Positions 2,209 to 57,117 of a stretch of DNA of 64,000 nt are shown here, in pieces. Under the pieces are notes generated by a model, which saw only the letters and a list, made by a program, of their open reading frames with translations, was not told where the DNA came from and made no database searches. Location: contig OY761541.1 of NCBI GenBank assembly GCA_963664625.1, forward strand, positions 2,187,670 to 2,251,669, read 5' to 3'. Every line of letters starts with the position of its first letter. The first letter of the stretch is position 1. Position numbers and translations under genes: made by a program. The DNA is from Dehalococcoidia bacterium (GTDB lineage: Bacteria; Chloroflexota; Dehalococcoidia; Lucifugimonadales; UBA3495).

Positions 2209-2233
2209 TATTCCGGTAGATGAGGTGGTTGTA

Positions 2234-5335: not shown

Positions 5336-5360
5336 GGATTCCCGCCTTCGCGGGAATGAC
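5336..5360 (-). repeat. REP-like palindromic repeat, copy 2
   Basis: ggattcccgccttcgcgggaatgac, intergenic. Confidence 0.9.
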
Positions 5361-5432
5361 GATGAATGGCCCCAGCGGTGTGCTATCATGGCAGGAATTC
5401 TACGGCTTGGGCCAGTGGGAAGAGGCCTATAT

Positions 5433-15205: not shown

Positions 15206-16342
15206 CTAACTTGCCTTCCCATTGAAGTGGGGGATGACGTGCTTGCCGAAGAGACGCAGCGTATCCATCACTTCCTCATGGGATATGCCGCCCACCTGAA
15301 ACAGGGGCATGACCTCGTCCACGCCCGCCTCGGCATAGGCTTCCAGGTAGCGGATACAGTCGTCGGGGTCGCCGATGCAGTAGCGTCCACTCCTTATCTG
15401 GTCGAGGGACGATGTTTCCTCGCGCTTTGGAGAGTCGGTCGCGGTGGAGCGGGTGTAGTGCCACTGGTAGTCTTCGGGAACGTGGGACGGGTCCTGCTCG
15501 CTCCACACCCGGACGTCCCGGAGGGCCTGCTGATGGCGATACCAGTCGATCAATTCGGCGGAGCGTTCCTGCACCTTCTTGCGCGACTCCCCGCAGATGG
15601 CCACAGTGCTTACAGAGACACGGTTGTGGACAAGCCCGGTGGACGGATTGGCGTCCCTGATGCCGTCCCGGTAGGCTTGCACGAGAGGGGCGAGTCCCGC
15701 GGCCCCGCCGCCGGCCATTGAGAGGCAGCCCAAGCCCATGAGTCCCGCCTTCCTGAAGGTGTCTTCCTGGCTGCAACCGAGCCAGATAGGCGGGTGCGGT
15801 TGCTGCACCGGCTTGGGATGGACCTCCCGCAAGGGGATCTGGTAGTGGCTGCCTTGGTAGGTGAACTCTCCCTCGGTCCATGCCCGCGGGATGATTTCCA
15901 GGGCCTCTTCCACCATTCCGGTAGCGTCTTTCAGGTCGGTGCCGAAAGCGGCCATCTGGTAGGGGTAGCCGGACCGGCCCACGCCCAGATCAACCCTGCC
16001 ATTGCTGAGGATGTCGAGGGTGGCGGTGCGGGCCGCGATGTGGAGAGGGTGCTGCACCGGGGGCACCACCACGGCGATGCCCAGACGCATTCGGCTGGTA
16101 CGCTGGCTCAATGCGCCCAGGGTTACGTCGGGGGCGCTGGAGTGGGACCACTCGGTACGGAACTGGTGGTCGGCCATCCAGACGCTGCTCAGGCCCATCT
16201 CTTCAGCATAGGCCACCTGGTCAAGCATTTCCAGGAACCGGTCAGCCTCGTAGGCACGGGATGACGGCCTGGGGACCTGCATCTGATAGAACATGCCGAT
16301 TTGCATGGACATGCTTCCTGCGCTTGACTCCTTGCCGGGCAT
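15206..16342 (-). CDS. LLM-class (luciferase-like) flavin-dependent oxidoreductase
   Basis: MQIGMFYQMQVP..AEEMGLSSVWMADHQF..RMRLGIAVVV..HIAARTATLDILSNGRVDLGVGRS. The start may be an internal Met (16312/16306). Confidence 0.85.
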   Translation of the reverse strand: MPGKESSAGSMSMQIGMFYQMQVPRPSSRAYEADRFLEMLDQVAYAEEMGLSSVWMADHQFRTEWSHSSAPDVTLGALSQRTSRMRLGIAVVVPPVQHPLHIAARTATLDILSNGRVDLGVGRSGYPYQMAAFGTDLKDATGMVEEALEIIPRAWTEGEFTYQGSHYQIPLREVHPKPVQQPHPPIWLGCSQEDTFRKAGLMGLGCLSMAGGGAAGLAPLVQAYRDGIRDANPSTGLVHNRVSVSTVAICGESRKKVQERSAELIDWYRHQQALRDVRVWSEQDPSHVPEDYQWHYTRSTATDSPKREETSSLDQIRSGRYCIGDPDDCIRYLEAYAEAGVDEVMPLFQVGGISHEEVMDTLRLFGKHVIPHFNGKAS

Positions 16343-17980: not shown

Positions 17981-20494
17981 TCACAGCGTCCGCGGGCGGA
18001 AAATGCGGAACAACAGGGCCAAGCGGATCCGTACCCATGCCTGTATCAATTGTAGCCGCTGGTCTGCGTCCAGTTCCTTGTTGCCGTAGACCCGGCGCAC
18101 GTAATGTCCGGTAATAACTGACACTTGGTCCCGGTACTCCGGCAAGGCCTCCTCCAAACGCCGCTGGTACTGGTACGGCGTCTGGTGGGCCGCCGGCCGT
18201 AGTGCCCCAAGGGTAGCCAGCAACGCCATGCGGCGGAACGCCACCCTGGGGTCTTCGGGCGCGACCATGAGTCTTCGCCACAGCAGGGTCAGAATTCCGG
18301 CGACTGCCAGCACCGACGCCAGCCCAATAGCTACCCACATGATGATGGTGGCCAACCGGCTGTTGAAGGTCAGGGGCCCGATGTTGCCGAATTGGTCCGG
18401 GTTGTTGGTCAACGCCGGATCGCACTCGCCTATATCCTCCAAGCACTCATCTTCGTTATCATCATCAGGGATAAACAGGGTAGAGGTCTCCGCTTCCGCT
18501 TCCGGCGGTACGGCGGTTGGGATGGCCCGTCCCGGCGTTGCTTCATAGGGTATCCAGCCATAGTTGGGCATGTAGACTTCCAGCCACCCGTGGCTGTTGG
18601 AGTCCAGCACCACGTAGGTGTCCTGGTCTATCACCTTGTTGCCCGTGGTATAGCCGGTGACCATGCGGGCCGGGATGTCTACCGACCGCAGCATGACGGT
18701 CATGGCGGATGCGAAATACTCGCTGTAACCCTTCTTCTGTTCAAACAGGAAGTGGTCCACCCCGTCGGCGTCGAAGGGGGGCGGTTCCACCACCAGGGTG
18801 TAAGGGTACTCCGTGGTCAGGAATTTCTTGATGGCCTCGGCCTTGTCATAGGGAGTCTCGGCGTCGGCGCTCACAGATGCGGCAAGGTCCCGCACCCGCC
18901 GCGGCACACTTTCAGGAAGTTGCAGGTACCGCTGGGTTACCCACGCGGGGTAATCGTCTCCGGCGGAGCGCAACTGGGCGGGCGTGGCGTTGGAGACCAA
19001 CGAGGTAACCGTATAGGTTTCTCTGGCCTTCACTTCCTTCTCGCTGCGCACCGACAGCACGTCGGGCTGGAGCGGGATCACGTCGGCCACCGTCGCCTCG
19101 TTGATCCGGCCTCCCTGGGACCTGGTTACGCCTACCAAGTGGAAGTTGCTGTCCAGCAGGGAAGCCAAGGAGGAGAACTTTATGTCCGACCCCCGCTGGT
19201 GTACGGCTTGGTGCAATTCCGTGGCGGCTTCCAACACCGGCGCTGGCAAAAGATGCCGGGTCAGCGCTTCGGTGAAGTCCACCGAATAAGTGGGAGACTC
19301 GTAGGTCTCGATCTCCACCGGCCGGTCGACGTCGATTACCTGAGTACCGGCAAACAGGTTGTTCGAGGCATACATCGGGGTGACGGAGTAGCTGACTTCA
19401 AACCGCCCTTCGTCGGGCTGGGGCGACGATATGGGCGGCGCCCATCCCACCGGTCTCATCACTGTGTCGTCGGACTTCCAGCCCTTGGGGGTGTAGGTGG
19501 CGTAGGTCCTTGCCTTCCAGTACATGGCCACCGGGGAGTCAACCCACAAGACCTGGGCTTGCGTGGGGTTGATCTCGCCTTGGAAGGCCAGCACATCCCC
19601 CCAGATTCGATACCCCAACGGCTTCCGAGCGGGAAGACCGGCGAAGAGCCGGTTGAAGTCTGCCTCGAAGTTCTTCAACGGCGTCCGCATGTATTCGTAG
19701 GCATCGTTGGTGGGGCCGAATTTGCCGCCGGTCGGGATAACGAAAAAGGCTATCACCATTACGATCATGGCGAGCAGGAAGGTATCGGAGATCGAAAGAA
19801 CGCCCAAGTGGCCGTCGTAAGCAACGTTCCTTTCGTCCCACTCCCGGCGCCGGCGCACCGACTGGACTCGCGCGATTAACAACAGCGCGGTGAACAGGTA
19901 GAAGAGCAGAAAGCGGCTTGCTTCCGGCGGCAAGTAGGTGAGGTTTGACAGCAGGCCCACGCCGCCAAGGACGAACACTCCCCAGAAGTTCCGGTAACGG
20001 CAGAACAGCCAAGCCGCCAGGAAACCTGCCATCCAGGTTGCGCACATTATACCGAAAGCGAAGGGGACCGAATCGATATTGATGGACCCGGTCTCGGCCG
20101 CTTCCCACCAGAGGGCCAGCCGGGTCCAGAGTTGTTCGGCGTTGGTGACCGCAACCTCCCGCGACTGGAAAGAGGTAATCTGCCAGACGGTGGTCAGCAA
20201 CCCCAGGGCAACGCCAAAGGGCAACGCCAGTACGCCCCATCCGGGCAGGCGGGCCAGCAGGATGCCCGCCGCCAGTGCCATCAGCAGCAACCCTTTCAGG
20301 TCGGGCAGCGGCACCCAGTTGGCCTCCTCGACCGACCAGATGACCACCAACAGGTTCAAGGCAAGGACTGCGAGGGCCAGCCAGCCATCGGAAGGCCGGA
20401 AGAACTGGACGACTGCAATCACCCCGTTCAAGGGGTTGGTGGTGACGGGCCGCTCCCTTACCGCAACCGCTTCAACCAGCGCGTTGAAGTTCAT
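17981..20494 (-). CDS. TgpA-like transglutaminase-domain polytopic membrane protein (variant triad)
   Basis: N-terminal multi-TM region. The core KKGYSEYFASAMTVMLRSVDIPARMVTGY..NSHGWLEVYMPNYGWIPYEATPG has Ser where the catalytic Cys is expected. Its start overlaps the stop of the upstream DUF58 gene (20491..20494). Confidence 0.8.
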   Translation of the reverse strand: MNFNALVEAVAVRERPVTTNPLNGVIAVVQFFRPSDGWLALAVLALNLLVVIWSVEEANWVPLPDLKGLLLMALAAGILLARLPGWGVLALPFGVALGLLTTVWQITSFQSREVAVTNAEQLWTRLALWWEAAETGSINIDSVPFAFGIMCATWMAGFLAAWLFCRYRNFWGVFVLGGVGLLSNLTYLPPEASRFLLFYLFTALLLIARVQSVRRRREWDERNVAYDGHLGVLSISDTFLLAMIVMVIAFFVIPTGGKFGPTNDAYEYMRTPLKNFEADFNRLFAGLPARKPLGYRIWGDVLAFQGEINPTQAQVLWVDSPVAMYWKARTYATYTPKGWKSDDTVMRPVGWAPPISSPQPDEGRFEVSYSVTPMYASNNLFAGTQVIDVDRPVEIETYESPTYSVDFTEALTRHLLPAPVLEAATELHQAVHQRGSDIKFSSLASLLDSNFHLVGVTRSQGGRINEATVADVIPLQPDVLSVRSEKEVKARETYTVTSLVSNATPAQLRSAGDDYPAWVTQRYLQLPESVPRRVRDLAASVSADAETPYDKAEAIKKFLTTEYPYTLVVEPPPFDADGVDHFLFEQKKGYSEYFASAMTVMLRSVDIPARMVTGYTTGNKVIDQDTYVVLDSNSHGWLEVYMPNYGWIPYEATPGRAIPTAVPPEAEAETSTLFIPDDDNEDECLEDIGECDPALTNNPDQFGNIGPLTFNSRLATIIMWVAIGLASVLAVAGILTLLWRRLMVAPEDPRVAFRRMALLATLGALRPAAHQTPYQYQRRLEEALPEYRDQVSVITGHYVRRVYGNKELDADQRLQLIQAWVRIRLALLFRIFRPRTL

Positions 20495-21762
20495 GCCGCA
20501 GCCTCCACCGCTCCCCTTGGCGCCACCCCGCTTTCTAACCCGGTTTGGCGGTTAAGAGGCATCCGCAGCGCGTCATTTAGAGATTGCCCTCTTTTGACCA
20601 CGTAGGTCGCCACGTCGTTGTCGAAAAGGTAATCGACCAAGTATCTCTGTTCCCTGGACCCGCCGAAGTCCTTCGGGTCGATCAACACCACGGCAACATT
20701 GACTCCTTTGCGGCGCAGGTCGTTGAGGGCCGGCACCCATTCCGACCGGGTGGAGGGGGTTATCACGGTCAGGGTATTGATCCGGCTCAATTGACCGCGC
20801 ATGTCGTACAAGTACCGCTCCAAGGACATGGTGCCGTTGGCGCGCATCTGGGCGAGAGACTCGAACAACCTGCCTTGGTGCTCCGGGCTGCTGTCGGGCC
20901 GGAAAATATAGGTGTTGTCGCTGTTGGATGCCAAGCCTACCGGCATGGACGATTCCACCAACCGCGAAATCAGGGACGCCGCAATGGTCACGCCCAGTTC
21001 TTCGGTGTTGTCCGACTCGTCGTTGGGGGACGGGTGCGAGGTACGCTGCATGTCCAGCAACACCCACGCCTCCGCCGATTGGCCCAGGTCGAATTCCTTC
21101 ACCATGAGAGTGTTCATGCGGGCCGTGTAGGGCCAGTGAATGCGGCGAAAGCTGTCCCCGTGGGCGTATTCCCTGACCGAGGAAACATCGGTGGTTATCT
21201 GGCTGACCGAGTGGCTTGTCCGGCTCTCACTTGGCAGGTTGGCCAAGCGCAGGTCCATGTCCGGCAGCGGCTCGGTGGCGGGGAAGACTATGAAGGGATC
21301 GGGGTCCCCAAAGATGCGCCGGAACCGGAAAATCCCCAAGGGGTCCTGCCCGACTACCTCAACCTGCCCGACGTGGTAGAGGCCGCGCCTGCTCAAATAA
21401 GTGTCTGTGCGCCAAGTACGGGCTTGGTCTTTTACCATGGCGATGCCCCGGCCCGGAGTGTTGCCCGGCAGATCGGTGAATTCCGTTACCTCCAGCCAGG
21501 ACTTGGGAAGACGGTTGGTGTTGTGGATGGTGACACGCCCTTCGAGATACTCGCCCACCTGTCCCCGGCTGGTGATGCGGCTCAATTGAACATCGAGGCC
21601 CCGCAGATTAAGCAGTGCCCAGCCAATGCCGATCACGCCCATCAATATGAGCGTGTAAAGGAACTGGTAGAAGAACTGGAAGCCGGTGCCTATAGTATAA
21701 AACCCGATGACGAGGAACAGCACGAAGACGCCGGCAGTCCTTTTGGTCAAGAACCTTTTCAT
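20491..21762 (-). CDS. DUF58 (vWA-like) protein
   Basis: VREYAHGDSFRRIHWPYTARMNTLMVKEFD. N-terminal TM helices. Sits between the MoxR and TgpA genes. Confidence 0.85.
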   Translation of the reverse strand: MKRFLTKRTAGVFVLFLVIGFYTIGTGFQFFYQFLYTLILMGVIGIGWALLNLRGLDVQLSRITSRGQVGEYLEGRVTIHNTNRLPKSWLEVTEFTDLPGNTPGRGIAMVKDQARTWRTDTYLSRRGLYHVGQVEVVGQDPLGIFRFRRIFGDPDPFIVFPATEPLPDMDLRLANLPSESRTSHSVSQITTDVSSVREYAHGDSFRRIHWPYTARMNTLMVKEFDLGQSAEAWVLLDMQRTSHPSPNDESDNTEELGVTIAASLISRLVESSMPVGLASNSDNTYIFRPDSSPEHQGRLFESLAQMRANGTMSLERYLYDMRGQLSRINTLTVITPSTRSEWVPALNDLRRKGVNVAVVLIDPKDFGGSREQRYLVDYLFDNDVATYVVKRGQSLNDALRMPLNRQTGLESGVAPRGAVEAAA

Positions 21763-21775
21763 TGTTCGGTTTCAG

Positions 21776-22735
<960 letters not shown>

Positions 22736-26819: not shown

Positions 26820-27551
26820 ATGACCCCAAGGCCCATGACCCCAAAGGCGGAAGCAGGAGAAATCATCCCATTTCCAGACGCGCCGCCTGAAGAATTGACT
26901 GCCTTCTTCAGCATTAACTTCCCGGGATATCCGCCTTCACTGGCCGAACATTTCGGCAACCCGGAGACCACCATCATCCTTAGTGAAGTCGCCGCAGCCC
27001 TTATACCTACGCGGAGCTATGAGGGGGTGTTGTATCCCGACCTGCTCATCGCTTTCGACGTCCATCCTCACCTCTGGAGTGTACGCAACGGCTACCTTAT
27101 TCCTGAGCAAGGCAAGCCCCCCGACTTTGTGATGGAGGTAGCCTCGGAAAGCACTGCCCGCCGTGATGAGACGTTGAAGAGGGAGGCCTACGCGGCGATG
27201 GGCGTACCTGAGTACTGGCGTTTCGACTCCACGGGCGGGCGCCGGTATTCGACGCACTTGGCCGGAGACCGGTTGGTGGACGGCATATATGTGCCCATCA
27301 CCATCCACAGGACAGACGACGAACATTTGTGGGGTCACAGCGACTCTCTGGACCTGGACTTGTGCTGGGAGGAGGGTGACCTGCGCTTTTGGGATCCTGT
27401 GGCCCAGCGTTACCTGCACACGTTCATGGAGGAAAGCGCCGCCCGCCGTGAGGCGGAGGCCCGCGCCGCTATGGCGGAAACCCGTGCTGACGCGGCCGAG
27501 ACGCGAGTCCGGCAACTGGAAGAGGAGCTTCGCCGCCGTCAAAATTCATAA
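26820..27551 (+). CDS. Uma2-family (DUF820) endonuclease with coiled-coil tail, paralog 2
   Basis: YPDLLIAFD, GKPPDFVMEVASEST, MGVPEYWRFD, LAGDRLVDGIYV. Tail: REAEARAAMAETRADAAETRVRQLEEEL. Confidence 0.8.
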   Translation: MTPRPMTPKAEAGEIIPFPDAPPEELTAFFSINFPGYPPSLAEHFGNPETTIILSEVAAALIPTRSYEGVLYPDLLIAFDVHPHLWSVRNGYLIPEQGKPPDFVMEVASESTARRDETLKREAYAAMGVPEYWRFDSTGGRRYSTHLAGDRLVDGIYVPITIHRTDDEHLWGHSDSLDLDLCWEEGDLRFWDPVAQRYLHTFMEESAARREAEARAAMAETRADAAETRVRQLEEELRRRQNS

Positions 27552-29337: not shown

Positions 29338-31584
29338 ATGACCCTGTCGGCCGTTGGAAAAAACTTAACGCGGACTGACCTGCGGGACAAGCTGACCGGC
29401 GAAGCCAAGTACTCCGCCGACTTGAAGTTGCCGGGGATGCTTTACGGATTGGTGCTGCGCAGTCCACATCCCCATGCGGAAATAACCGGTATCGATACCG
29501 AAAGGGCGAAGCAACTGCCGGGGGTCTTTGCGGTGGTGACTCCCTTCGACGTTCCCCAAGGCCGGTTGGCCCATGACGTGGCCGTGCTGGATGCTCACGT
29601 CAGGTTTGTGGGCGACGAAGTCGTGGCAGTGGCGGCGGTTGATTTGGACACGGCCCGGCGCGCACTCGATCTCATCCGAGTGGACTACCGGGTGCTGCCC
29701 TTCGTATTGGAGCCGGAAGAAGCGCTGAAGGACGATGCGATCGCCATCCATCCCGGCGGCAATCTGGCCAGTGATCCCATATATTTGGAACGGGGCGACG
29801 TTGACCAGGGACTGGCTGAGGCCGACCTGGTCCTGGAAGGCGACTACGTTATTCCAACTCACTCGGCGACGCCGTTGGAGCCGCGGGTCGCGTTGGCCTC
29901 GTGGGAAGGAGACTCGTTGACCGTCTGGAAGACCAGCCGCGGCGTTCACGTGGACCGGGACGCCTTGGCCGGAGCGTTGAGCATCCCCGCGTCGCGGGTG
30001 CGAGTGGTCGGCCCCTACATGGGCGGCGGCTACGGCAACAAGGACGAGTCCCGGTTGGGCGCCTTGGCGGCGGTGCTGGCCCAGCGGGCCGGCAGGCCGG
30101 TGCGCTTGGAGTACTCGCGTGAAGAGGAATTCGTCGCCGGACGGGTGCGTCACGCCGCCCGTATCAAGATGAAAGTGGGCGTCAAGAATGACGGTAGCAT
30201 AACCGCGATCCACGCCGATGCTCTTCTCGACACCGGCGCATACCTGTCCTCGGGTCCCGGCGTGGCGCGCCGCACCGGCCAGGGAGCGTTGTACCTGTAC
30301 CACTGCGCCAACGCAAGGTACCAAGCCCGCTTGGCCTACACCAACCGCCCCTCCGCCGGCTCTTACCGGGCATTGGGTGCGCCCCAGGGCCACTTCGCTC
30401 TGGAGACCCTGATGGACCGCGCTGCGGAAGCGTTGGGCATGGACCCGCTGGAGTTCAGGCTCAAGAACCACGTTCGCCCCGAAGGGCAACCCGGAGTCCG
30501 CCTGTCTCCTCCCGACCAGATAGTGGACAGCCAGCCGGTGGAGGGCGGTATTCCTTTTTCCAGCAACGCCCTGGGCCAGTGCTTGGAACTGGGCGCTGCC
30601 GCCTTCGGGTGGGACTATCGGCGAAAGGGCTATGATTCCGGCGACCCTGACAGGAAGACCGGCCGCGGGATGAGCATGATGATTTACCGCGGCGGGCCAG
30701 GGTCGGTGTCGGCGGCCGAGGTGTCTATCGACAAGTCCGGCAGGACCACCTTGACTACCGGGCTTATCGACGTGGGAGAGGGGGCCACAACAGTGCTGGC
30801 GCAGATGGCGGCTGAAGTGCTTGGGATGGAAGCTCGAGATATCGACGTTGTGTCCGCCGATACCGGCAGCACTCCCCCGGCGCCGATAACCGCTGGCTCG
30901 GCGGCCACCTTTTCCACCGGGACGGCGGTGGTCGAAGCCGCGACCCAGGTCAAGGAGAAGCTTCTGGAGTTGGCCTCCGTCGGCCTGGAGGTCCCGGCCC
31001 AGGAATTGGACTTGCTTGAAGAGTCCGTTTTCGTCAAGAGCGACCCGTCCCGGCGCATGTCGGTGGCAGAGGTGACCCAAGCTACGGGCGATGAAGTGAT
31101 TTCGGTATTGGCCACCATCAACCCGGGAAGTACGGACTACGTCGTCAATTCCTTCGGAGCGCATTTCGTGGAAGTGGAAGTCGACAAGGTCACCGGACGG
31201 GTGACCGTGCTCCGTTATGTGGCCGCCCATGATTCAGGCCGCATAATCAACCCACAAATGGCGCTGAACCAAGCCGAGGGAGCTATTTCGCAGATGCTGG
31301 GATTCGCGCTGTCCGAGGAGTTGGTCACCGACGGTCCCACCGGCATCACCCTGAACGCCAGCTACCTTGAGCATAAATCGCCTACGGTATTGGACTATCC
31401 GGATATCGAGGTGATTTTTGCCGACGTCGTCGACCCGGTGGGTCCCTTGGGAGCGAAAGCCTTGGGAGAGGTGCCGAGCATCGGCCAGGCCCCGGCCATA
31501 GCCAACGCCATTTACGACGCCGTTGGCCTGCGTTTGACGCGGGTGCCTTTCACGCCCGACCTGATGCTGCAAGCCTTGGAATGA
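29338..31584 (+). CDS. XDH-family molybdopterin-binding large subunit
   Basis: MTLSAVGKNLTRTDLRDKLTGEAKYSADL... Loop SYRALGAPQG. 748 aa. The next gene starts with an ATGA overlap. Confidence 0.9.
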   Translation: MTLSAVGKNLTRTDLRDKLTGEAKYSADLKLPGMLYGLVLRSPHPHAEITGIDTERAKQLPGVFAVVTPFDVPQGRLAHDVAVLDAHVRFVGDEVVAVAAVDLDTARRALDLIRVDYRVLPFVLEPEEALKDDAIAIHPGGNLASDPIYLERGDVDQGLAEADLVLEGDYVIPTHSATPLEPRVALASWEGDSLTVWKTSRGVHVDRDALAGALSIPASRVRVVGPYMGGGYGNKDESRLGALAAVLAQRAGRPVRLEYSREEEFVAGRVRHAARIKMKVGVKNDGSITAIHADALLDTGAYLSSGPGVARRTGQGALYLYHCANARYQARLAYTNRPSAGSYRALGAPQGHFALETLMDRAAEALGMDPLEFRLKNHVRPEGQPGVRLSPPDQIVDSQPVEGGIPFSSNALGQCLELGAAAFGWDYRRKGYDSGDPDRKTGRGMSMMIYRGGPGSVSAAEVSIDKSGRTTLTTGLIDVGEGATTVLAQMAAEVLGMEARDIDVVSADTGSTPPAPITAGSAATFSTGTAVVEAATQVKEKLLELASVGLEVPAQELDLLEESVFVKSDPSRRMSVAEVTQATGDEVISVLATINPGSTDYVVNSFGAHFVEVEVDKVTGRVTVLRYVAAHDSGRIINPQMALNQAEGAISQMLGFALSEELVTDGPTGITLNASYLEHKSPTVLDYPDIEVIFADVVDPVGPLGAKALGEVPSIGQAPAIANAIYDAVGLRLTRVPFTPDLMLQALE

Positions 31585-32579
31585 TGAGGGACTTCCAGTT
31601 TTTCCAACCCGGTTCCGTTGACGAGGCCGTGTCGTTGCTGGCAAGTCGGCCCCACGGGTCGTTGCCTATTGCCGGCGGCAGCGACCTGCTGTCTGAAATG
31701 AAAGACGGGGTGGTAAGCCCCGATCGGCTGGTCAGCCTTTCCAGTCTGGACGAGTTGAAAGGGATTTCTCAGACCTCGAGCGGGACGACGTTGGGGGCTA
31801 TGACTACCATCGCCGAGATCGCTGAAAGCGAGGTTATCCGCACCCGTTACGCGGCCTTGGCCCAAGCGGCGGCGGGATTGGCCACCCCGCAAATCCGCAA
31901 CGTGGGCACCCTTGGCGGCAACCTGAACCAGCGGCCCCGGTGCTGGTACTATCGCCATCCCCTGTCGGTCTGCTTGAAGAAAGGCGGGGACCGTTGCTTC
32001 GCGTTGGAAGGCGTCGGCAAGTACCTGTGCATAACCGGCGGAGACCGTTGCTACATAGTCCATCCGTCCGACACTGCCGTTGCGCTTGCCGCCTTCGACG
32101 CTGCAATTGAGATAGCCGGTCCCCCCGGGCTGCGAACCGTGCCGATTGAAGAATTTTTCACAGGGCCGGGCCGGGACATCACCAGGGAAAACGTGCTGGC
32201 TCCGGGAGAGATTGTTACCCGGGTATACCTGCCCCTGGCTGACGGCAGTGATCAGGTCGGGCCTTCCAAAAGCCTGTACCTGAAGGCCAGGGAACGGGAG
32301 GCGGGGGACTTTGCCTTGGTCAGTGTTGCGGCGGTGGTGCGGTTGGACGGCGCCAAAGTGCAAGAAGCAAGGGTTGTGCTAGGCGGAGTAGCGCCGACGC
32401 CTTACCGGTCCCGCCAGGTGGAAGACTACTTGATCGGCATGGAAACGTCGGAGGTTGACCCGGTTGTGGCCGGAGGCGCGGCAGTTCCTGATGCCCGGCC
32501 TATGGCGGACAATCGCTACAAAGTTTCTCTCGCATCCAACATGGTCAAGCGGGCAATCGCGCAACTGCTGTCAGCCTAG
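31581..32579 (+). CDS. FAD-binding medium subunit of XDH/CODH-family enzyme
   Basis: FQFFQPGSVDEAVSLL..PIAGGSDLL..IRNVGTLGGNL. Translationally coupled to the large subunit. Confidence 0.85.
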   Translation: MMRDFQFFQPGSVDEAVSLLASRPHGSLPIAGGSDLLSEMKDGVVSPDRLVSLSSLDELKGISQTSSGTTLGAMTTIAEIAESEVIRTRYAALAQAAAGLATPQIRNVGTLGGNLNQRPRCWYYRHPLSVCLKKGGDRCFALEGVGKYLCITGGDRCYIVHPSDTAVALAAFDAAIEIAGPPGLRTVPIEEFFTGPGRDITRENVLAPGEIVTRVYLPLADGSDQVGPSKSLYLKAREREAGDFALVSVAAVVRLDGAKVQEARVVLGGVAPTPYRSRQVEDYLIGMETSEVDPVVAGGAAVPDARPMADNRYKVSLASNMVKRAIAQLLSA

Positions 32580-32728
32580 CCTCTTCTCACCTTCGGCTTC
32601 GTTTCACCGAACCCAGGCCTCTCTCCTTCGTCCGCCCTTGCCCTCAAAGTTCCCCGTCATCCGCAATGCGGATCAACAAAACCGCCAAACTTTGCATTGG
32701 CGCAAAGACTGAACAGAATTTAAGACTT

Positions 32729-32736
32729 TGTATAAT
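32729..32736 (+). promoter_or_regulatory. candidate -10 element (TG-TATAAT) in the leader of the tubulin-like operon
   Basis: Perfect TATAAT at 32731..32736 preceded by TG, about 120 nt upstream of ATG 32858. I found no convincing -35. Confidence 0.3.
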
Positions 32737-32857
32737 ACTTTTGCACAGGGCGCCAGGGCTTTTCACCCGCATCAAGGTCCATGGACGCCCCGGAATTAGC
32801 GGGAGTCTTGCCAACAAAATTGGAGAGACACCCAGTTACATAATCAAGGAGTTCGGC

Positions 32858-34114
32858 ATGAAGCTAGTCTTAGTGGGCGCAGGCCAGGGTGGTTCCAATA
32901 TAGCGGACGAGTTCGTCGCGCTTGGGAAATGGGTTTGGAAAAACAGGCGGATACGGATTTTCACTGGTTCGGAACACGATGACATTGCCAAGGGCGTGTT
33001 CGCAGTCAACTTGGGTGCGGGAGACCTCTACAGCCTTCAACACATCCCTCAAACCGAAGACCACACGATCCTGTTGGGAACGACCGACGAGTTCCGGGGG
33101 CGCGGCGCGGGTAAGGTCAATGCCGACGGCGCCGAGCAGGCTCGGCGGGGTGCGCACAAGATCGTGTCCACCATCCGCGACCATGGTGACGTTCCGTCGG
33201 CAGACGCCATCATGGTCATTGCCACCACTGCCGGCGGCACAGGCTCCGGCTCCGTGGGCGTCATCGTGGACTTGCTGAAAGACGCCTTCAAGAAACCCGT
33301 ATACGCTTTGTTGGTCCTTCCATTCGAGAACCAATATGACGATCCGGACAGCATGGTGAACACGGCCACCTGTATCAAGCGGGTGCTGGACAATTCCAAC
33401 GCCGACGCCGTTTTCTTTGTGGACAACCAGAAGTTCGTCCGCGGCAGTCAGTCGATGTCCTACAACTACCAGCAGATAAACCGCAAGATAGCCGATTCGT
33501 TCCTTGACATCCTGTGTGTTGGAGAGGAGACCGACCGGCGCTACATCGGTGAGGTATTGGACGCCAACGACGTGATACGCATCCTGCACGGCCCTACGGC
33601 GATCGGAGTCTCTCAGGCGACGGTGCCCAAGAAGAGCAGCAGCGGGTTGTTTGGCCGGTTACGCGGCGAACCCAAGGTCAATCACTTCTCAGTATCCAAG
33701 CTGCAAATAGAGCGGGCCCACAACGTGCTCCAGCAAGCGTTGGGCGAGTTGTCCATCGACTGCGAGGTCTGGGAAAACGGGTGTTCCTACTATGACGCCC
33801 AGAATGTGTTGGGACTCTTCAGCGGCCCCGTCGAAGAAGCCAGCGAAGAGATAGTGGAAATGATGGACACCACGTTGGCGGAACGGGTACCGGGCGCCGG
33901 GCGCCGGAAGGGCACCTACCCGGGCCGGGTTTCCGACACCATCGGCTTCACCATCGTTGTGTCCAATATCGGAAGGGGCGCGGCCATGGACCGGGTCGAG
34001 AAGTTCTTCCTCGACGCCACCAGAATGCTTGGCGAAGTCCAGCACAAGCGGGAGGGCAGAGAAAAACTGTGGGAAGCCACGGCCCGGACCGCATCGCAGA
34101 TCCCTGACCTGTAA
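32858..34114 (+). CDS. tubulin/FtsZ-superfamily GTPase, CetZ-like (not housekeeping FtsZ)
   Basis: ATG 32858 follows AAGGAG. T1 loop MKLVLVGAGQGGSNIADEF, T4 tubulin signature ATTAGGTGSGSVG, FFVDNQKF, T7-like VLDANDVIRIL. Confidence 0.8.
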   Translation: MKLVLVGAGQGGSNIADEFVALGKWVWKNRRIRIFTGSEHDDIAKGVFAVNLGAGDLYSLQHIPQTEDHTILLGTTDEFRGRGAGKVNADGAEQARRGAHKIVSTIRDHGDVPSADAIMVIATTAGGTGSGSVGVIVDLLKDAFKKPVYALLVLPFENQYDDPDSMVNTATCIKRVLDNSNADAVFFVDNQKFVRGSQSMSYNYQQINRKIADSFLDILCVGEETDRRYIGEVLDANDVIRILHGPTAIGVSQATVPKKSSSGLFGRLRGEPKVNHFSVSKLQIERAHNVLQQALGELSIDCEVWENGCSYYDAQNVLGLFSGPVEEASEEIVEMMDTTLAERVPGAGRRKGTYPGRVSDTIGFTIVVSNIGRGAAMDRVEKFFLDATRMLGEVQHKREGREKLWEATARTASQIPDL

Positions 34115-34176
34115 AAGTTGCGGGAGTTTAATCCCCTAGTCCGGATGGCAAGATACACCAAATCAGGAGGTTCATC

Positions 34177-35127
34177 ATGAGGAGCTCGAGAGCGCCTGAG
34201 CACCGAAGCGGCTCATCAAGGCTCATAATATTACTGGGTTTGTTTGTCCTGGTCGTTGGCCTGGGCTTGGCCATTACCTACTTTACCCAAGGGTTTGGCT
34301 CGTTGTCGGCGGAGACCACCGAGCCGGTCCCCGCAGTAACTGGAACTGACGCCCCTTTGGCGCCGAAAGTAGTCTCTGGATCTCCGGCGTCCGACCGAGC
34401 GGAAATGAAGGCCGAAGTAGTGGTGCCGGAGTCCCAGGTTGACGAGCCCGCCGGGGAGGCCAAAATGGAGCCTGCCGCTCTTGGACGCGACTCTGGGGAA
34501 AATACGGTTGATGCTGCCAAAACGGAAGGATCGGACGGCGAGCAGACCCCATCCCTTGCCCAGGAGACGGAACGGAATTTGGAATTTTTGCCCCAGGTGC
34601 GGTTTGGCGAAGTGCTTGGCGAAGGGCTGATGGAACTGCCGATGCCCAGCGGAGAAAAGGTTGATACTTGGTACACCTTCCAAGTGGACACCACCAGCGG
34701 GGAAATCATAGTCTACTTCGCCTTGTTCGACGAGGAGGAACAGTCGATATTGAGCACCGTTCGAGTGGACAACTATTCCAAGGGCAATGACTTGACCCAG
34801 GCCGAAGTTACCCTTTTCTACGAAGACGGGATGCAACGGGTCATCGGATTTGACGGCGTTGCCGGCGCCATGTCCATCGCGCAACGCTATAATCTCCCCC
34901 AGGGCCCCAGCATCTTTTCACGCGAACTGCGCCGCTCGATGGTGTATCGAGGAATGGAGTTGAAGGACGCGGAGAATAACGCGTTCCTGGACTTGGACCT
35001 GGACGTAAGCGGCCTGTCCAGAGGTGAAAAGATACGCTTCACGCATTCGGCGCCCGCTGAAGTAGCGATGGCGTTGGAGGAGTTGAAGGAATTGATCGGC
35101 GTCATTGAAGTGGTGAGGCAAAGCTGA
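34177..35127 (+). CDS. single-pass membrane protein, partner of the tubulin-like GTPase (unknown family)
   Basis: AGGAGG RBS. R-rich N-terminus, TM helix LIILLGLFVLVVGLGLAITYF, acidic/Pro-rich linker, then a C-terminal domain of about 190 aa. The gap to the upstream gene is 62 nt and the two genes share one terminator. Confidence 0.7.
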   Translation: MRSSRAPEHRSGSSRLIILLGLFVLVVGLGLAITYFTQGFGSLSAETTEPVPAVTGTDAPLAPKVVSGSPASDRAEMKAEVVVPESQVDEPAGEAKMEPAALGRDSGENTVDAAKTEGSDGEQTPSLAQETERNLEFLPQVRFGEVLGEGLMELPMPSGEKVDTWYTFQVDTTSGEIIVYFALFDEEEQSILSTVRVDNYSKGNDLTQAEVTLFYEDGMQRVIGFDGVAGAMSIAQRYNLPQGPSIFSRELRRSMVYRGMELKDAENNAFLDLDLDVSGLSRGEKIRFTHSAPAEVAMALEELKELIGVIEVVRQS

Positions 35128-35193
35128 ATCGAACAAAGACACACACGATCAACCGCCCTGGGCCTCGATAATCGAGCGTTGCAATGGGCGACT

Positions 35194-35237
35194 GAACACC
35201 GGCAACTGTTTGAACGCAGAGGCCGGTGTTCTTTTTC
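35194..35237 (+). terminator. rho-independent terminator of the tubulin-like operon
   Basis: gaacaccggc-18 nt loop-gccggtgttc followed by TTTTT. Confidence 0.75.
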
Positions 35238-35394: not shown

Positions 35395-36165
35395 ATGCCG
35401 TCATTTTGGGAAAACCTTAGATTCCCTGGCGAAAGAGAAATGGATGACCTTCATGGCTACCAGGGCTTGGACATGGTCTGTTACGTCAGTCATCCCGCGC
35501 CCTCCGCCGGGAGTTCGTGGCCTGCCATCATCGTGGTCCAGGAAGCGTTCGGCGTCACCAGGCACATTGAGAAAGTATGCGACCGGTTCGCGCAAGAGGG
35601 TTACGTAGCCGCGGCCCCGGCCCTGTTCCACCGGGAGCACCCCAATCCCAAGCTGGGCTACGACGAGATGCCCCAGGTCCAGCGCTACATGGGAATGCTG
35701 CGGGACGACGAGCTTGTTGAAGACATCAACGTTACGATCGACTACCTGCAGAACACTTACGGTCGCACCAGGGGACAGAAAATCGGCATCGTCGGCTATT
35801 GCGTCGGCGGCCGCATCACCTACTTAGCCGCGACCAGTTGCCCGGGTCTCAGCGCCGCCTCGGCCTACTACCCGGGCCGCGTTCTCATTCCCTTCGGGGA
35901 TGGACCCGCTCCCATAGACCTGACGAATCAGATCCAAATCCCTGTTATGGGCAACTTCGGTGCTTTGGACGCCAACCCAACCGTTGAAGATGTTGGGGTC
36001 ATTGAAGACAAGCTCAAGGAAGCTGGTGTCACCTATGACTTCAAGATATACCCCGACGCGGACCACGGTTTCAATTGCGATGAACGGGGCAGCTACCATC
36101 AAGCCTCGGCAGAGGACGCCCTTGCCCGCACCTTGGGCTGGTTCGATAAGTACCTGAAGAACTAA
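35395..36165 (+). CDS. dienelactone hydrolase-family protein
   Basis: WPAIIVVQEAFGVTRHIEKVCDRFAQEGYVAAAPALF, GIVGYCVGG, YPDADHGF. Confidence 0.85.
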   Translation: MPSFWENLRFPGEREMDDLHGYQGLDMVCYVSHPAPSAGSSWPAIIVVQEAFGVTRHIEKVCDRFAQEGYVAAAPALFHREHPNPKLGYDEMPQVQRYMGMLRDDELVEDINVTIDYLQNTYGRTRGQKIGIVGYCVGGRITYLAATSCPGLSAASAYYPGRVLIPFGDGPAPIDLTNQIQIPVMGNFGALDANPTVEDVGVIEDKLKEAGVTYDFKIYPDADHGFNCDERGSYHQASAEDALARTLGWFDKYLKN

Positions 36166-38760: not shown

Positions 38761-40800
38761 CTACGGCACCAGTCCGAAAAACCGGCGTGGCGGTGCCACT
38801 TTTTGCCCTAAGAAGTCTTCCAACAGGTTCCTTTTCATGGCTATTTGGTCGGAAACGCTGGCGGTGTCGTCCAGTATCCAATCGGGAATGTCGGCCTTGG
38901 TCTGACGAGAAGTAATCGGCTCGACACCGACGATTACCAAGTTGCCGGATAGTGCCCAACTGCCTACAGCAGGACGCCGGTCCTTACTGTACTTGTCGCG
39001 GTGCAACAGGTTCTCCAGAACCATCCGGGGTCTGTCGAAAGCACGGTTCTGATACTCGTCCAGTGTCATGGGAGAGCACCACTCCGGGACTCTCGAATTC
39101 TCAGGAAGGTTCCGCTCGATTATCCGGCACAGGACTGTCGAAGATAGTTCAAGGACGTCCAGTCCCTCTTGTTTGTGTTCCGCGATTGCGTCCAATTCGC
39201 TTATAACATGGGCAAGGTATTCACTGTAAAGACCTGTGGTCAGCCGATCGCGTATGGCCGCCACTGACCTTTGAAGTCGGCGACGGGATGATGGGTCGTC
39301 GCCAGGTAATGAGGTGCGGGTGTAGATCATCAGGCATCGCTTGATGATTTCGGCGGGGAAATTGCGTGCCTCGGCATTCATGGATATGGCGAAGCATGGA
39401 TACTCGGCGTCATGAACCGTTTCGTCTTTAATTATCTCCGGTGCGTGACGATTGAAACGGTCTCTGGTCACGTCATCGAATACTATTGGGAATCGCAAGA
39501 AGTTCTGCTGCAATCCGCGCAAGCTGCTGCGCGTGAAAGCCTGCGTATCAACAATCTTGGGATGGCCGAACATCGAAACAAGCAGGGTCTCAATGAGGCT
39601 GCTCTTCCCGCAGTTGCTCTGGCCGTAGAGGACAGCGAACATGGGTTGATCGAAGCTGAAATTGCCCTGCCTGAGCGCGGAGTTTCGCAGGTCACACATC
39701 AGTGGGGCGAAGTAAAACCAGCACATAAATGTGAAGTAGTCGCGTTGCAACCGTGGAACGTCCCCAACAAACCCGTTTTCATAGTTCTCGAAAAACTCCA
39801 GGAACGCCGCCACATCGTTGCGAACGTCTTCCGGGCTTGCACCCAGGCTGATGTCTGTACCCGACAGGTTGAAGTGGTCACCGTTTCGGGTAAGAAATGT
39901 TTTCGGGGCTTCATCGTCTTTTCTGGTGATGGCAGTGCGGATAATCTCCCGCACTACTCGCGGCAATAGCTTGACGTTGCCGTCGCGGTCGGGGCGAATG
40001 TCGGCCAACGCCTGCCGGCGCACAGGACGGATTCGTTCAACGGTCTGCAACACTTGCGGTATGCTGAATTCAACCGTGTCGTCCGGCTCGGCGGGGACGT
40101 AAATGGTTACGCCATCAGCATGGGATTCCGCATCTTTGAGCACGGGAGTTTCCTCTAACGGCAAACTCTCGACGGCGATGGGTTTCTCTCTAAGGGGCAG
40201 GCTGCTGGTGGCGGTCTCGCGTACCGCCTCGTACTGGGCGCAGTAGTGCTGCCATGCTTCTTCGTCGTTGTCGAATACGATTAGGGTTTCTGCTTGACGC
40301 CCCGAAAAGGCTGTCTCCGACAAGTTGGCGGAGCCGACGATTACCCGTCGCAGTTCCGGTCGCTCAAGCAGATAGATTTTTGCGTGGGCGATGGCGTCCT
40401 TCACCACGTAGAACCTGGCAGTACCAGCGGCGGCCCGGTCGTAAATCAGGCGGCGTCGTTCCTCGGACATTCCCTTGATGCCAACGAACCCCTTGTTCAG
40501 CTTTTCGTCCACCACGCTTTGAAAGGACAATATGGCATCCACGTCACGCGGCAATATGCCGCCGTGACCAAAGACACACTCGAAATCTTGGAAGTCACAA
40601 TCTCTTAGCAGTGTCAGAATCATTGGGATGCTGGCGGTATAGGTGAGAGCCCGCATGGAGGTGAAATTGTGGAAAAGGCCGGGGTCAAACCGGCCTACAG
40701 ATTCAGCGCGTGCATAGACGACTTCCAGCGTATTGCTGCGAGTGCGAGACTCGGGGTCATCGAATTCAAAACCGGGCTGTGATTGACTCATTCTAGCCAT
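38761..40800 (-). CDS. single-HKD PLD-family nuclease fused to P-loop NTPase (candidate defence/selfish-element protein)
   Basis: HKD motif AHAKIYLLERPELRRVIVGSANLS (H139/K141 .. GSxN). Walker A LYGQSNCGKSSL (~393-401). Walker B PIVFDDV (~438-443). Composition is lower in GC than the flanks by eye. Confidence 0.75.
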   Translation of the reverse strand: MARMSQSQPGFEFDDPESRTRSNTLEVVYARAESVGRFDPGLFHNFTSMRALTYTASIPMILTLLRDCDFQDFECVFGHGGILPRDVDAILSFQSVVDEKLNKGFVGIKGMSEERRRLIYDRAAAGTARFYVVKDAIAHAKIYLLERPELRRVIVGSANLSETAFSGRQAETLIVFDNDEEAWQHYCAQYEAVRETATSSLPLREKPIAVESLPLEETPVLKDAESHADGVTIYVPAEPDDTVEFSIPQVLQTVERIRPVRRQALADIRPDRDGNVKLLPRVVREIIRTAITRKDDEAPKTFLTRNGDHFNLSGTDISLGASPEDVRNDVAAFLEFFENYENGFVGDVPRLQRDYFTFMCWFYFAPLMCDLRNSALRQGNFSFDQPMFAVLYGQSNCGKSSLIETLLVSMFGHPKIVDTQAFTRSSLRGLQQNFLRFPIVFDDVTRDRFNRHAPEIIKDETVHDAEYPCFAISMNAEARNFPAEIIKRCLMIYTRTSLPGDDPSSRRRLQRSVAAIRDRLTTGLYSEYLAHVISELDAIAEHKQEGLDVLELSSTVLCRIIERNLPENSRVPEWCSPMTLDEYQNRAFDRPRMVLENLLHRDKYSKDRRPAVGSWALSGNLVIVGVEPITSRQTKADIPDWILDDTASVSDQIAMKRNLLEDFLGQKVAPPRRFFGLVP

Positions 40801-43308: not shown

Positions 43309-43426
43309 TCCTGGTGGTTTGAGCGTGGCGGACCCACCCGTTCCCATCCCGAACACGGTAGTGAAACGCCTCAGCGCCGACGATACTGCCTTGGTAACGG
43401 GGTGGGAAAATAGGTCACCGCCGGGG
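43309..43426 (+). rRNA. rrf: 5S ribosomal RNA (stand-alone, no 23S/16S nearby)
   Basis: Conserved core ..CACCCGUUCCCAUCCCGAACACGGUAGUGAAACGCCUCAGCGCCGACGAUACUG..AAUAGGUCACCGCC... Terminal helix CCUGGUGG/CCGCCGGG. Confidence 0.9.
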
Positions 43427-49368: not shown

Positions 49369-49525
49369 TCCTACTCCCTTTACTATCGCCGCCAAGGTAG
49401 GGAAGAATTGCCTGAGCCTGTCGCGGCGATTGCGCTTTTGTTGCCGGTTTTCAGGCCCCGGTCTTTCCCCGGAGCGATTTTAGAATCGCGCCTTGGTCCG
49501 GTAATAGAGGTCTTTGGGGGTGTCT

Positions 49526-56341: not shown

Positions 56342-56499
56342 GAGATTTATGAGGTTGAAAATCCACTCTTATGACTATCAAACTGGCAACGATGTTTCGG
56401 CCAATTTTGACCGTTTTTCGAGCGACTGGAGAAGTCATAAGAATAAGTGCCGGTCATCAACCGGTGCTGTTTGGTGTTGGTATGGTTAGTACTGGGGAG

Positions 56500-56793
56500 C
56501 TATTCATAGCTGTGAGAATCGATCTCAGGGTCGTCCGGGTTAGGCTCAGGCTCATCGGGGCCGGTGTCAGGCTCTCCAGTATAGTCTAATGACGGCAGAT
56601 CATAGTAAGGCTCAAAGTCATTATCGATCTCAGTATCCCTACCATCCATCCTTGCCATCCTTGCTAATTCTTCGGGAGTGAGATTGGCTTCCAATTCTTC
56701 GAGCGCGTGAGCAGTTTCATCTTCTTCCGGTTTCTGTTGGACTTCCGTTTCTATCATGTCTTTAATAATGTCGGTGAAGTCGGGCTGTGACAT
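56500..56793 (-). CDS. hypothetical highly acidic protein
   Basis: 97 aa, D/E/P-rich (..DYTGEPDTGPDEPEPNPDDPEIDSHSYE). Lies in a lower-GC islet. No family recognised. Confidence 0.4.
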   Translation of the reverse strand: MSQPDFTDIIKDMIETEVQQKPEEDETAHALEELEANLTPEELARMARMDGRDTEIDNDFEPYYDLPSLDYTGEPDTGPDEPEPNPDDPEIDSHSYE

Positions 56794-56856
56794 ATCGTGG
56801 CCTCCGTACTTGTGATGCCATGCAAGTCGAGAATAGAAGCGGCTGAGGCACTTGCT

Positions 56857-57060: not shown

Positions 57061-57117
57061 CTCTCTTAACCTCTTGCTATGGTCACTCCGATAACATTAT
57101 ACGGTAGCGGAGCCAAT

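Follow-up and report, generated by a model that had tools for sequence, protein, structure and literature searches.

A CetZ-like tubulin-superfamily gene and a co-inherited bitopic membrane protein gene form a conserved pair in Dehalococcoidia

In a 64-kb stretch of contig OY761541.1 from a Dehalococcoidia bacterium (hereafter the window), two adjacent genes on the same strand encode a CetZ-like GTPase of the tubulin superfamily and a bitopic membrane protein of an orphan family, which we refer to as the partner. The pair had been singled out from the nucleotide sequence and its open reading frames (ORFs) without database searches, in what we call the sequence-only reading. The window sits on a 3.76-Mb contig and has the gene content of an ordinary bacterial chromosome, including DnaE, EF-G, RtcB, a Clp ATPase, RadA, MoxR, a 5S rRNA and a tRNA. 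This content, together with relatives of the CetZ-like gene in Dehalococcoidia and the Candidate Phyla Radiation (CPR), marks the host as bacterial and not archaeal, and the operon is carried by a marine-type Dehalococcoidia, SAR202-like bacterial chromosome. The features of the locus are collected in Table 1.

Table 1. Features of the two-gene locus, with positions in the window and residue numbers of the encoded proteins
Feature	Position (strand)	Description or basis
Leader and promoter region of the two-gene operon	32580..32857 (+)	278 bp, 51.8% GC against 59.9% for the window
TATAAT, -10-like hexamer conserved as TAnAAT	32731..32736 (+)	T, A, A, A and T invariant in 11 related loci
AAGGAG ribosome-binding site of the CetZ-like gene	32846..32851 (+)	Read in the sequence; AGGAG invariant in 11 loci
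CetZ-like tubulin-superfamily GTPase	32858..34114 (+), stop codon 34112-34114	418 aa, begins MKLVLVGAGQGGSNIADEF
T1 loop GAGQGGSN, residues 7-14	32876..32899 (+)	G7, G9, Q10, G11, G12, S13 and N14 invariant in 40 homologues
Insert of 13 residues after helix H1, residues 22-34, LGKWVWKNRRIRI	32921..32959 (+)	Gap opposite haloarchaeal CetZ1
T4 tubulin signature TTAGGTGSGS, residues 123-132	33224..33253 (+)	Aligned to CetZ1 GLGGGTGSGG
T7 loop VLDANDVIRIL, residues 233-243, with D238 at the catalytic position	33554..33586 (+)	Alignment with CetZ1
M-loop tip GLFGRLRG, residues 263-270	33644..33667 (+)	Aligned to CetZ1 GLLSRLTG
Long C-terminal helix, residues 375-413	33980..34096 (+)	AlphaFold2 model; partial alignment with the CetZ1 C-terminal helix
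C-terminal tail QIPDL, residues 414-418	34097..34111 (+)	P416 and L418 invariant in 40 sequences
Intergenic spacer with AGGAGG at 34165-34170	34115..34176 (+)	62 nt; read in the sequence
Partner, type-II bitopic membrane protein, orphan family	34177..35127 (+)	316 aa, ATG 34177
Conserved N-terminal peptide MRSSRAPEHRS, consensus MRxSRxPExRG, predicted cytoplasmic	34177..34209 (+)	Conservation and charge
Transmembrane helix, residues 14-37	34216..34287 (+)	AlphaFold2 helix; hydrophobic stretch of 21-23 residues
Disordered hypervariable Pro/Ala/Glu-rich spacer, residues 38-131, predicted extracytoplasmic	34288..34569 (+)	pLDDT <50
Beta-rich C-terminal domain, residues 137-316, predicted extracytoplasmic	34585..35124 (+)	pLDDT 80-97
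Intrinsic terminator	35194..35237 (+)	Inverted repeat 35194-35208 / 35217-35231, then TTTTTCT

The start of the CetZ-like gene lies inside a longer ORF (32666..34114). The homologues span 393–437 residues, mostly 417–424 (best 120 of 413 clusters), and those that were aligned begin at the same Met as ATG 32858, so that the 418-residue product preferred in the sequence-only reading is the real one. That reading had also placed every nucleotide-contact loop and the T7 loop by eye, and all of them are intact and invariant in 40 homologues. Besides T1, the invariant positions comprise T123, T124, G126, G127, T128, G129, S130 and G131 of T4, the FFVDNQKF motif (residues 186–193), and D235 and D238 of T7. 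The latter two correspond to D215 and E218 of CetZ1, the catalytic position being occupied by Asp, not Glu. In work on CetZ1, E218 is the catalytic residue that has been targeted by mutation, and both positions are functionally required there (de Silva et al. 2024). In the insert that follows helix H1, W25, W27, N29, R30 and R33 are invariant in the same set. The M-loop region is modeled by AlphaFold2 with low confidence (residues 261–275), and the pattern G-(L/F)-(L/F/M)-x-R-(L/F/I) recurs at its tip among the homologues. An unusually long M-loop with a hydrophobic or amphipathic tip (LLSRL) is a hallmark of the CetZ1 subfamily and is needed for function, as is the C-terminal tail of CetZ1, LESLF (de Silva et al. 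2024). The bacterial proteins of the loci end in (L/I/V)P(D/N/S/L)L.

Family searches place the protein among the CetZs. Pfam Tubulin (PF00091) matched with an E-value of 5e-21 (76 bits), and CetZ_C (PF21011) matched residues 198–384 with an E-value of 8e-13 (48.6 bits against a cutoff of 21.6); PF21011 is carried by every one of the best 120 of 413 homologue clusters. The C-terminal half, at first taken to be unrelated, is thus a CetZ_C domain and aligns with CetZ1 up to about residue 398. When all of the PDB sequences were searched with phmmer, H. volcanii CetZ1 (4b46) was the top match (E 2e-25, residues 1–398 against 1–376), and a family profile sharpened the ordering, with CetZ1 at 2e-30, followed by CetZ2 (4b45) and M. 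thermophila CetZ (3zid) and then, far behind, by TubZ, gamma-tubulin and FtsZ. BLASTP aligned the protein to H. volcanii CetZ1 at 26% identity in 414 columns (26–28% across ~400 residues), and hhalign against the CetZ1 orthologues gave a probability of 99.8% over 342 columns. A profile of the three PDB CetZs, run in the protein search, returned CetZ1 orthologues only.

The structural comparison agrees with this assignment. The AlphaFold2 model has a mean predicted local distance difference test score (pLDDT) of 83 and a predicted template-modeling score (pTM) of 0.84, and folds as a tubulin with the additional C-terminal helix. Its three best Foldseek matches are 4b46, 4b45 and 3zid (TM-scores of 0.89, 0.90 and 0.81; E-values of 6e-24 to 4e-20), with TubZ and FtsZ ranking below them. 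On the FtsZ equivalog TIGR00065, the protein scored 35.5 bits against a cutoff of 295.2, while the controls, E. coli FtsZ and H. volcanii CetZ1, scored 471.7 and 83.7 bits; FtsZ_C (PF12327) gave no Pfam match at E<=1. A housekeeping FtsZ, which the sequence-only reading had also argued against, is ruled out by these two results, by the metabolic, non-division-and-cell-wall (dcw) neighbors and by the QIPDL tail. We are close to certain that the product of 32858..34114 is CetZ-type. In the current annotation, its homologues (best 120 of 413) are labeled 'hypothetical protein' or 'cell division GTPase FtsZ', and the latter label is misleading.

Set beside CetZ1 and the archaeal CetZs, the bacterial proteins share the GTPase and CetZ_C domains, the GQxGG of T1, the GGTGSG of T4, the acidic pair of T7, a long M-loop with a G-L-(L/F)-x-R-L tip, the C-terminal helix and a short hydrophobic tail, and CetZ1 is the best structural match. 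They differ in forming a separate, tightly conserved clade in Dehalococcoidia and CPR, in the Trp/Arg-rich insert of 13 residues after H1, in the catalytic Asp instead of Glu, and in a tail of the form (L/I)PxL instead of LESLF. Moreover, the bacterial gene is always paired with that of a bitopic membrane protein, whereas no such partner has been described for CetZ1.

The partner gene has the position, ribosome-binding sequence and length first reported for it. Its predicted product comprises the expected transmembrane helix, linker and globular domain, although the sizes given at the time (~110 and ~190 residues) are corrected to residues 38–131 for the spacer and 137–316 for the domain. Across the family, the spacer varies from 35 to 133 residues and contains 19.5% Pro and 15.6% Ala. 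The C-terminal domain, modeled with confidence, consists of ~10 antiparallel strands and a terminal helix (residues 293–315). The sequence-only reading could not assign this domain to any family, and our searches bear this out. No match to the partner was found in Pfam, NCBIfam, PADLOC, PHROGs or the PDB sequences, and neither Pfam run on 36 family members at E<=5 nor a profile search of the PDB gave anything credible. With Foldseek, the domain had no PDB match at E<1e-3, the best being the beta-meanders of nitrobindin, GFP and OspA with TM-scores of at most 0.27, and a single match below 1e-3 in BFVD (3e-4), which at TM-scores of 0.04–0.10 is not credible. A known family or fold for the partner was accordingly rejected. 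An exhaustive phmmer search recovered only 39 proteins of the family among 1.84 billion cluster representatives.

The most strongly conserved part of the partner is its N-terminal peptide. Over 60 homologues, the mean frequency of the top residue is 0.76 in the first 11 residues, 0.56 in the C-terminal domain, 0.50 in the transmembrane helix and 0.22 in the linker. In the set of sequences derived from the loci, the invariance of R5, E8 and R10 is partly imposed by the pattern used to find the start codons, and the alignment built from homology matches alone therefore serves as the independent evidence: in it, M1, R2, R5, E8 and R10 are each at least 90% conserved. The motif coincides with the start codon (ATG in 33, TTG in 24 and GTG in 1), and it is present in the CPR homologues too.

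The net charge averages +3.1 (minimum +2) before the transmembrane helix and −1.5 after it in the 60 homologues. By the positive-inside rule, this bias places the N-terminus in the cytoplasm and the linker and domain outside. The partner would then be inserted N-in, with the N-terminal peptide as almost its sole cytoplasmic part. The sequence-only reading had called the protein a membrane anchor. It is indeed a single-pass membrane protein, but its bulk is predicted to lie outside, and only the ~12–15 N-terminal residues could reach a cytoplasmic polymer.

The two genes occur together at every informative locus. Among the 68 loci with a CetZ-like gene, 62 are informative, having a complete 3' end of this gene and at least 900 nt downstream of it, and in all 62, including the two CPR genomes, the partner gene lies directly downstream on the same strand. 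In 58 of them, an ORF with the motif and a transmembrane helix starts within 400 nt; in the remaining four, the partner was recovered by tblastn. Conversely, the CetZ-like gene was found immediately upstream in all four look-ups that began from different partner proteins. The C-terminal domains of the CPR partners were detected, at 1.5e-26 and 2.4e-19, by a hidden Markov model (HMM) built from Dehalococcoidia sequences only. The partner diverges faster than the CetZ-like protein (27–74% identity, as compared to 60–97%), and no other neighbor is universal across the loci. These results uphold the earlier description of a dedicated single-pass membrane partner, and the two genes very likely form one functional module.

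The remainder of the locus is in keeping with a compact operon. The lower GC content of the 278-bp leader, the strong terminator and the unrelated metabolic genes on both sides had all been noted from the sequence and were borne out. The upstream flank encodes xanthine-dehydrogenase-family subunits, and the downstream flank a dienelactone hydrolase. The terminator hairpin (35194–35231) has 10+4 pairs and a folding energy of −24.8 kcal/mol, whereas a terminator scan found no such site in the 62-nt spacer between the genes; the spacers of the relatives range from 9 to 195 nt, with a median of ~69. The sequence around TAnAAT is poorly conserved across the 11 related loci, and from its invariance we infer that TATAAT acts as a promoter element. 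Since the other neighbors vary and TAnAAT does not, the conserved unit consists of the promoter, the CetZ-like gene, the partner gene and the terminator, and the pair is self-contained, as proposed. An A-rich block upstream of the hexamer (32679–32699, ACAAAACC..CAAACTT) is also kept in the 11 otherwise diverged leaders. The 5' untranslated region of ~120 nt contains conserved sequence blocks with no convincing consensus structure. A riboswitch or structured leader found no support: no Rfam family matched the leader, and RNAalifold gave no convincing conserved structure (−0.5 kcal/mol).

Several neighboring genes were considered individually. The dienelactone hydrolase gene (35395..36165) was rejected as a third component, as it lies behind the terminator and occurs in 23 of the 68 loci, all from one subclade; in other subclades, panB or ABC-transporter permease genes follow. 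An anti-phage defense system was likewise rejected, with no PADLOC match for the pair or the hydrolase gene. In one Dehalococcoidia subclade, a gene for a ParA/MinD-type ATPase (Pfam CbiA and AAA_31, faintly MipZ) lies on the same strand directly upstream of the CetZ-like gene (L001:3272-4291, the same as the L008 region upstream of 8001), and its product could be a polymer-positioning factor in that subclade. In the two CPR genomes, the pair (L056:6686-11105 and L062:6628-11174) is located between two genes that resemble the N-terminal membrane part and the C-terminal metallo-beta-lactamase part of ComEC, respectively, and a nucleoside-diphosphate-kinase-like gene follows in both; the ComEC and kinase calls were made by eye only. 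One metagenome-assembled genome (MAG), JADFFS01 (isolate B28T3L11), contains two CetZ-like/partner pairs (L009 and L055), 79% and 68% identical to the window protein, which are either true paralogous modules or the sign of a mixed bin.

Of the 8,000 candidates that were scored in the protein search, 413 clusters were significant. The 120 best of these are 70–96% identical to the window protein, and those that are named come from Chloroflexi, Dehalococcoidia or SAR202 MAGs. A scan of 185,579 genomes, one per GTDB species, yielded the 68 loci, which represent ~66 species. By the labels given in the deposited MAG records, nearly all of them belong to Dehalococcoidia, Chloroflexota or SAR202, closed chromosomes of 2.6–5.1 Mb among them. 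Two loci are from CPR, namely Candidatus Spechtbacteria and a MAG labeled Saccharibacteria, and one further locus is on a short contig labeled Neomarinimicrobiota. Among 72,556 plasmid records, there were 33 matches, and all of the 25 listed are CetZ paralogues on haloarchaeal megaplasmids; tblastn found no relative of the CetZ-like protein in 50,697 phage records.

A neighbor-joining tree was built from 28 sequences, with two partial references, 374 columns and 200 bootstraps; its references include the haloarchaeal megaplasmid CetZ paralogues and plasmid- or chromid-borne FtsZs. In this thinly sampled tree, the CetZ group, with the bacterial clade included, is separated from FtsZ with 100% bootstrap support. 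All of the bacterial sequences form one clade (100%), in which those from CPR branch at the base, and the haloarchaeal CetZs are its sister group (94%); M. thermophila CetZ falls outside. This branching order is a hint that archaeal CetZ diversity encompasses the bacterial clade.

A CetZ-like protein in Dehalococcoidia is not new in itself, as Santana-Molina et al. 2023 (PMC9871819) listed CetZ-like proteins in Chloroflexota-Dehalococcoidia. In the accessible portions of that paper, the treatment consists of one sentence and the tree leaves, described as 'sparse paraphyletic groups'; the CetZ C-terminal HMM of the authors matches the Dehalococcoidia sequences at ~1e-10, and the proteins are placed as 'CetZ-like', outside the canonical node. 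Those sequences very probably belong to the same protein family as the window protein. The partner gene, the operon, the CPR members and a functional proposal do not figure in the same portions, and a full-text literature search found no other treatment of CetZ in Chloroflexi, Chloroflexota, Dehalococcoidia or Patescibacteria, or of tubulin in SAR202. The two novelty claims of the sequence-only reading must therefore be narrowed. With the listing in PMC9871819, the family can no longer be regarded as strictly archaeal; and the system is not undescribed as regards the CetZ-like protein, whereas the operon, the partner and its invariant, predicted cytoplasmic peptide, and the occurrence in CPR appear to be undescribed so far.

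We propose that the pair couples a cytoskeletal polymer to the cell envelope, and that it may, as hypothesized from the sequence, work as a cytomotive or membrane-remodeling system. By homology with H. volcanii CetZ1, the CetZ-like GTPase would assemble beneath the membrane, on its inner face, into protofilaments or sheets that are dynamic and depend on GTP. The partner, sitting N-in, would expose its MRxSRxPExRG peptide to the cytoplasm, where it could dock on the polymer, while the Pro/Ala-rich spacer and the beta-domain would reach the outer envelope layer, so that the position of the polymer would be carried across the membrane to the envelope. The system may thus guide cell shape or the placement of surface structures, beside division by FtsZ/FtsA. 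This last step is suggested by relatives reported to have an S-layer and no peptidoglycan: Dehalococcoidales and SAR202 have lost the dcw and peptidoglycan genes, have kept ftsZ-ftsA and have walls of the S-layer type, and some SAR202 carry archaellum genes (PMC10608941, PMC11994032). CetZ1, for its part, has been proposed to guide envelope remodeling and not to serve as a rigid scaffold (de Silva et al. 2024). Taken as a whole, cytoskeleton-to-envelope coupling by the polymer and the partner is the best explanation that we can offer, and we consider it about evenly balanced between right and wrong. Contact between the two through the N-terminal peptide, judged separately, has a roughly even chance, and a role in cell shape or the envelope is advanced more tentatively, as a possibility.

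The proposed arrangement has parallels among known polymer–membrane systems. FtsZ with ZipA, FtsA or SepF is likewise a tubulin-superfamily polymer tethered via a short conserved peptide, and the domain order of ZipA is the same as that of the partner. However, the polarity is reversed here, in that the membrane protein carries the peptide and is predicted to lie mostly outside, and the partner has no sequence or fold similarity to ZipA, FtsA or SepF. By analogy only, the logic would be that of MreB and RodZ, with a cytoplasmic polymer, an N-in single-pass protein and an extracytoplasmic domain linked to envelope synthesis, but the polymers there are actins and not tubulins, and RodZ has a folded cytoplasmic helix-turn-helix domain instead of an 11-residue peptide.

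A further parallel is found in haloarchaea. There, cetZ1 is followed by a gene of ~260 codons on the same strand that overlaps its last 23–32 nt, in Haloferax (L083:5157-5951), Halobacterium (L085:3657-4442) and Halomicrobium (L086:3660-4442). Its product starts with a signal peptide, continues with an extracytoplasmic domain and a C-terminal transmembrane helix, and ends in a conserved cytoplasmic tail of ~11 residues (..SQQ..YDKLG). It has no Pfam match, and cofC comes next; in Halalkaliarchaeum (L087), the gene is absent after cetZ1. Like the bacterial partner, this protein is bitopic with a large outer part and a tiny conserved inner peptide, but its orientation is mirrored, with the transmembrane helix and tail at the C-terminus. 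Homology between the two was rejected (hhalign probability of 0.4%), and we found no paper on the haloarchaeal gene in a query limited to a guessed locus tag.

Several considerations weigh against cytoskeleton-to-envelope coupling. Co-occurrence speaks for shared function, not for contact. The topology of the partner is read only from the positive-inside rule and the composition of the linker, and the target of its outer domain, whether S-layer, lipid or glycan, is a guess, as the domain has no recognizable fold. CetZ1 binds liposomes unaided in vitro (de Silva et al. 2024), so that an anchor may be unnecessary. The genome content in view is 64 kb, and the context of ftsZ, mur and S-layer genes is taken from relatives; the CPR hosts lie outside the papers on peptidoglycan loss, and the S-layer argument may not extend to them. 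Finally, with only 68 loci among 185,579 genomes, the pair is not a core function of the class.

The absence of contact is the heart of one of the two strongest alternatives, in which the genes share an operon or pathway, the CetZ-like protein acts independently, and the partner is a secreted or surface protein, such as an S-layer accessory, whose N-terminus serves targeting, insertion or turnover. A basic N-terminal region followed by a hydrophobic stretch is formally a signal-anchor. The faster divergence of the partner also fits this explanation. However, ordinary n-regions are not conserved in sequence, whereas M1, R5, E8 and R10 of the partner persist from Dehalococcoidia to CPR while the transmembrane helix and linker drift; the hydrophobic stretch of 21–23 residues has the length of a transmembrane anchor, not of a cleavable signal peptide; and adjacency is retained in 62 of 62 loci despite the full turnover of the other neighbors. 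We consider this explanation unlikely.

An accessory or alternative division module is improbable to a similar degree. Here, the CetZ-like protein would form a mid-cell ring, and the partner would remodel the septal envelope in the manner of a late-divisome protein such as FtsN, FtsQ or DivIB. Bitopic proteins that have a small cytoplasmic N-terminus and a large outer domain, as is predicted for the partner, are typical components of the divisome, and the polymer would be supplied by a tubulin-superfamily fold with its T7 loop. The ParA/MinD-type ATPase gene directly upstream in one subclade would also suit a division role, but no division genes are found near the pair in any subclade, and the distribution is sparse. 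Related lineages lack ftsW/ftsI and peptidoglycan, so that division must remodel a different envelope; yet SAR202 and Dehalococcoidales retain ftsZ-ftsA (PMC10608941, PMC11994032). In H. volcanii, according to the literature, CetZ1–6 are dispensable for division, which is performed by FtsZ1 and FtsZ2.

Coupling through the opposite polarity would require the partner to be inserted N-out/C-in, so that its C-terminal domain, on a cytoplasmic Pro-rich tether, could bind the CetZ-like protein at its (L/I)PxL tail. The C-terminal peptide of FtsZ is bound in this way by E. coli ZipA, whose order of N-terminal transmembrane helix, Pro-rich linker and C-terminal globular domain is matched by the partner. 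The charge distribution is the opposite of what an N-out protein needs, with +2 to +7 on the N-terminal side and a mean of −1.5 on the other in all 60 homologues. Moreover, extracytoplasmic tethers are where spacers rich in Pro, Thr and Ala are typically found. This arrangement also leaves the 11 N-terminal residues unexplained as the best-conserved part of the protein, and no similarity to ZipA was detected in Pfam, NCBIfam, the PDB or Foldseek. In spite of the invariant P416 and L418 in the tail, and of the functional requirement for the C-terminal tail of CetZ1 (de Silva et al. 2024), we regard a ZipA-like partner as very unlikely.

Two further explanations, a TubZ/PhuZ-like DNA-segregation system of a mobile element and archaeal sequence binned wrongly with a bacterial MAG, are effectively excluded. 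TubZ does come next after the CetZs in both the structural and the sequence comparison, PHROGs gave a weak PhuZ match (E 0.0097) and the closest characterized relatives are archaeal, but the gene is chromosomal and has a membrane-protein partner, the locus has no TubR-like DNA-binding gene and no iteron repeats, the phage and listed plasmid matches are nil and exclusively haloarchaeal CetZ paralogues, respectively, the GC content is near the window average, the window holds DnaE, EF-G, RtcB, a Clp ATPase, RadA and 5S rRNA, and the pair recurs with bacterial flanks in closed Dehalococcoidia chromosomes of 2.6–5.1 Mb.

The coupling of a CetZ-like polymer to the envelope by its partner would bear on a wider problem. 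Rod formation and motility in Haloferax depend on CetZ1, whose mechanism and partners have been described as unknown (de Silva et al. 2024). The link between CetZ polymers and the envelope is an open question, for which a co-inherited partner with an invariant peptide yields a concrete binding hypothesis. With the pair, the range of a cytoskeletal family that has been treated as archaeal grows by two bacterial lineages, Dehalococcoidia and CPR. This has implications for how wall-less bacteria keep their shape and for gene exchange between Chloroflexota and archaea. In its boldest form, which we find doubtful, the partner would be the first dedicated transmembrane adaptor for a CetZ-type cytoskeleton: the N-terminal peptide would capture the polymer, the stalked extracellular domain would engage the S-layer, and a wall-less bacterium would pattern its envelope as haloarchaea are thought to do. 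As a similarly built, non-homologous bitopic gene overlaps cetZ1 in several haloarchaea, a CetZ with a single-pass envelope adaptor might then be a general and so far unrecognized design. The bacterial clade might have come from archaea along with other archaeal-type envelope traits of SAR202 (S-layer, archaella).

Elsewhere in the window, a lone 5S rRNA gene is located at 43310–43426; Rfam detected no 23S or 16S rRNA in the 64 kb, so that the 5S gene stands apart from the large rRNA genes in this stretch. Two Uma2-family (putative restriction endonuclease-like) genes lie at 5334–6248 and 26820–27551, and a gene with a PLD/NgoFVII-like nuclease domain at 38761–40800 on the minus strand. On the minus strand at 17981–22735, the genes for a MoxR AAA+ ATPase, a DUF58 protein and a transglutaminase-like/DUF4129 protein form a cluster of three, an arrangement that is common in bacteria but little understood. 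The 872-residue protein encoded at 49514–52132 joins DUF192, RCC1-like repeats and leucine-rich repeats, which is an unusual mix for a bacterial protein. The metabolic genes include two separate sets for molybdoenzymes of the xanthine-dehydrogenase/CO-dehydrogenase family (2063–4510 and 29338–32579), a luciferase-like monooxygenase (15206–16342), two family III CoA-transferases (55100–58353) and HpaB. These genes match the content described for SAR202-type degraders of recalcitrant organic matter.

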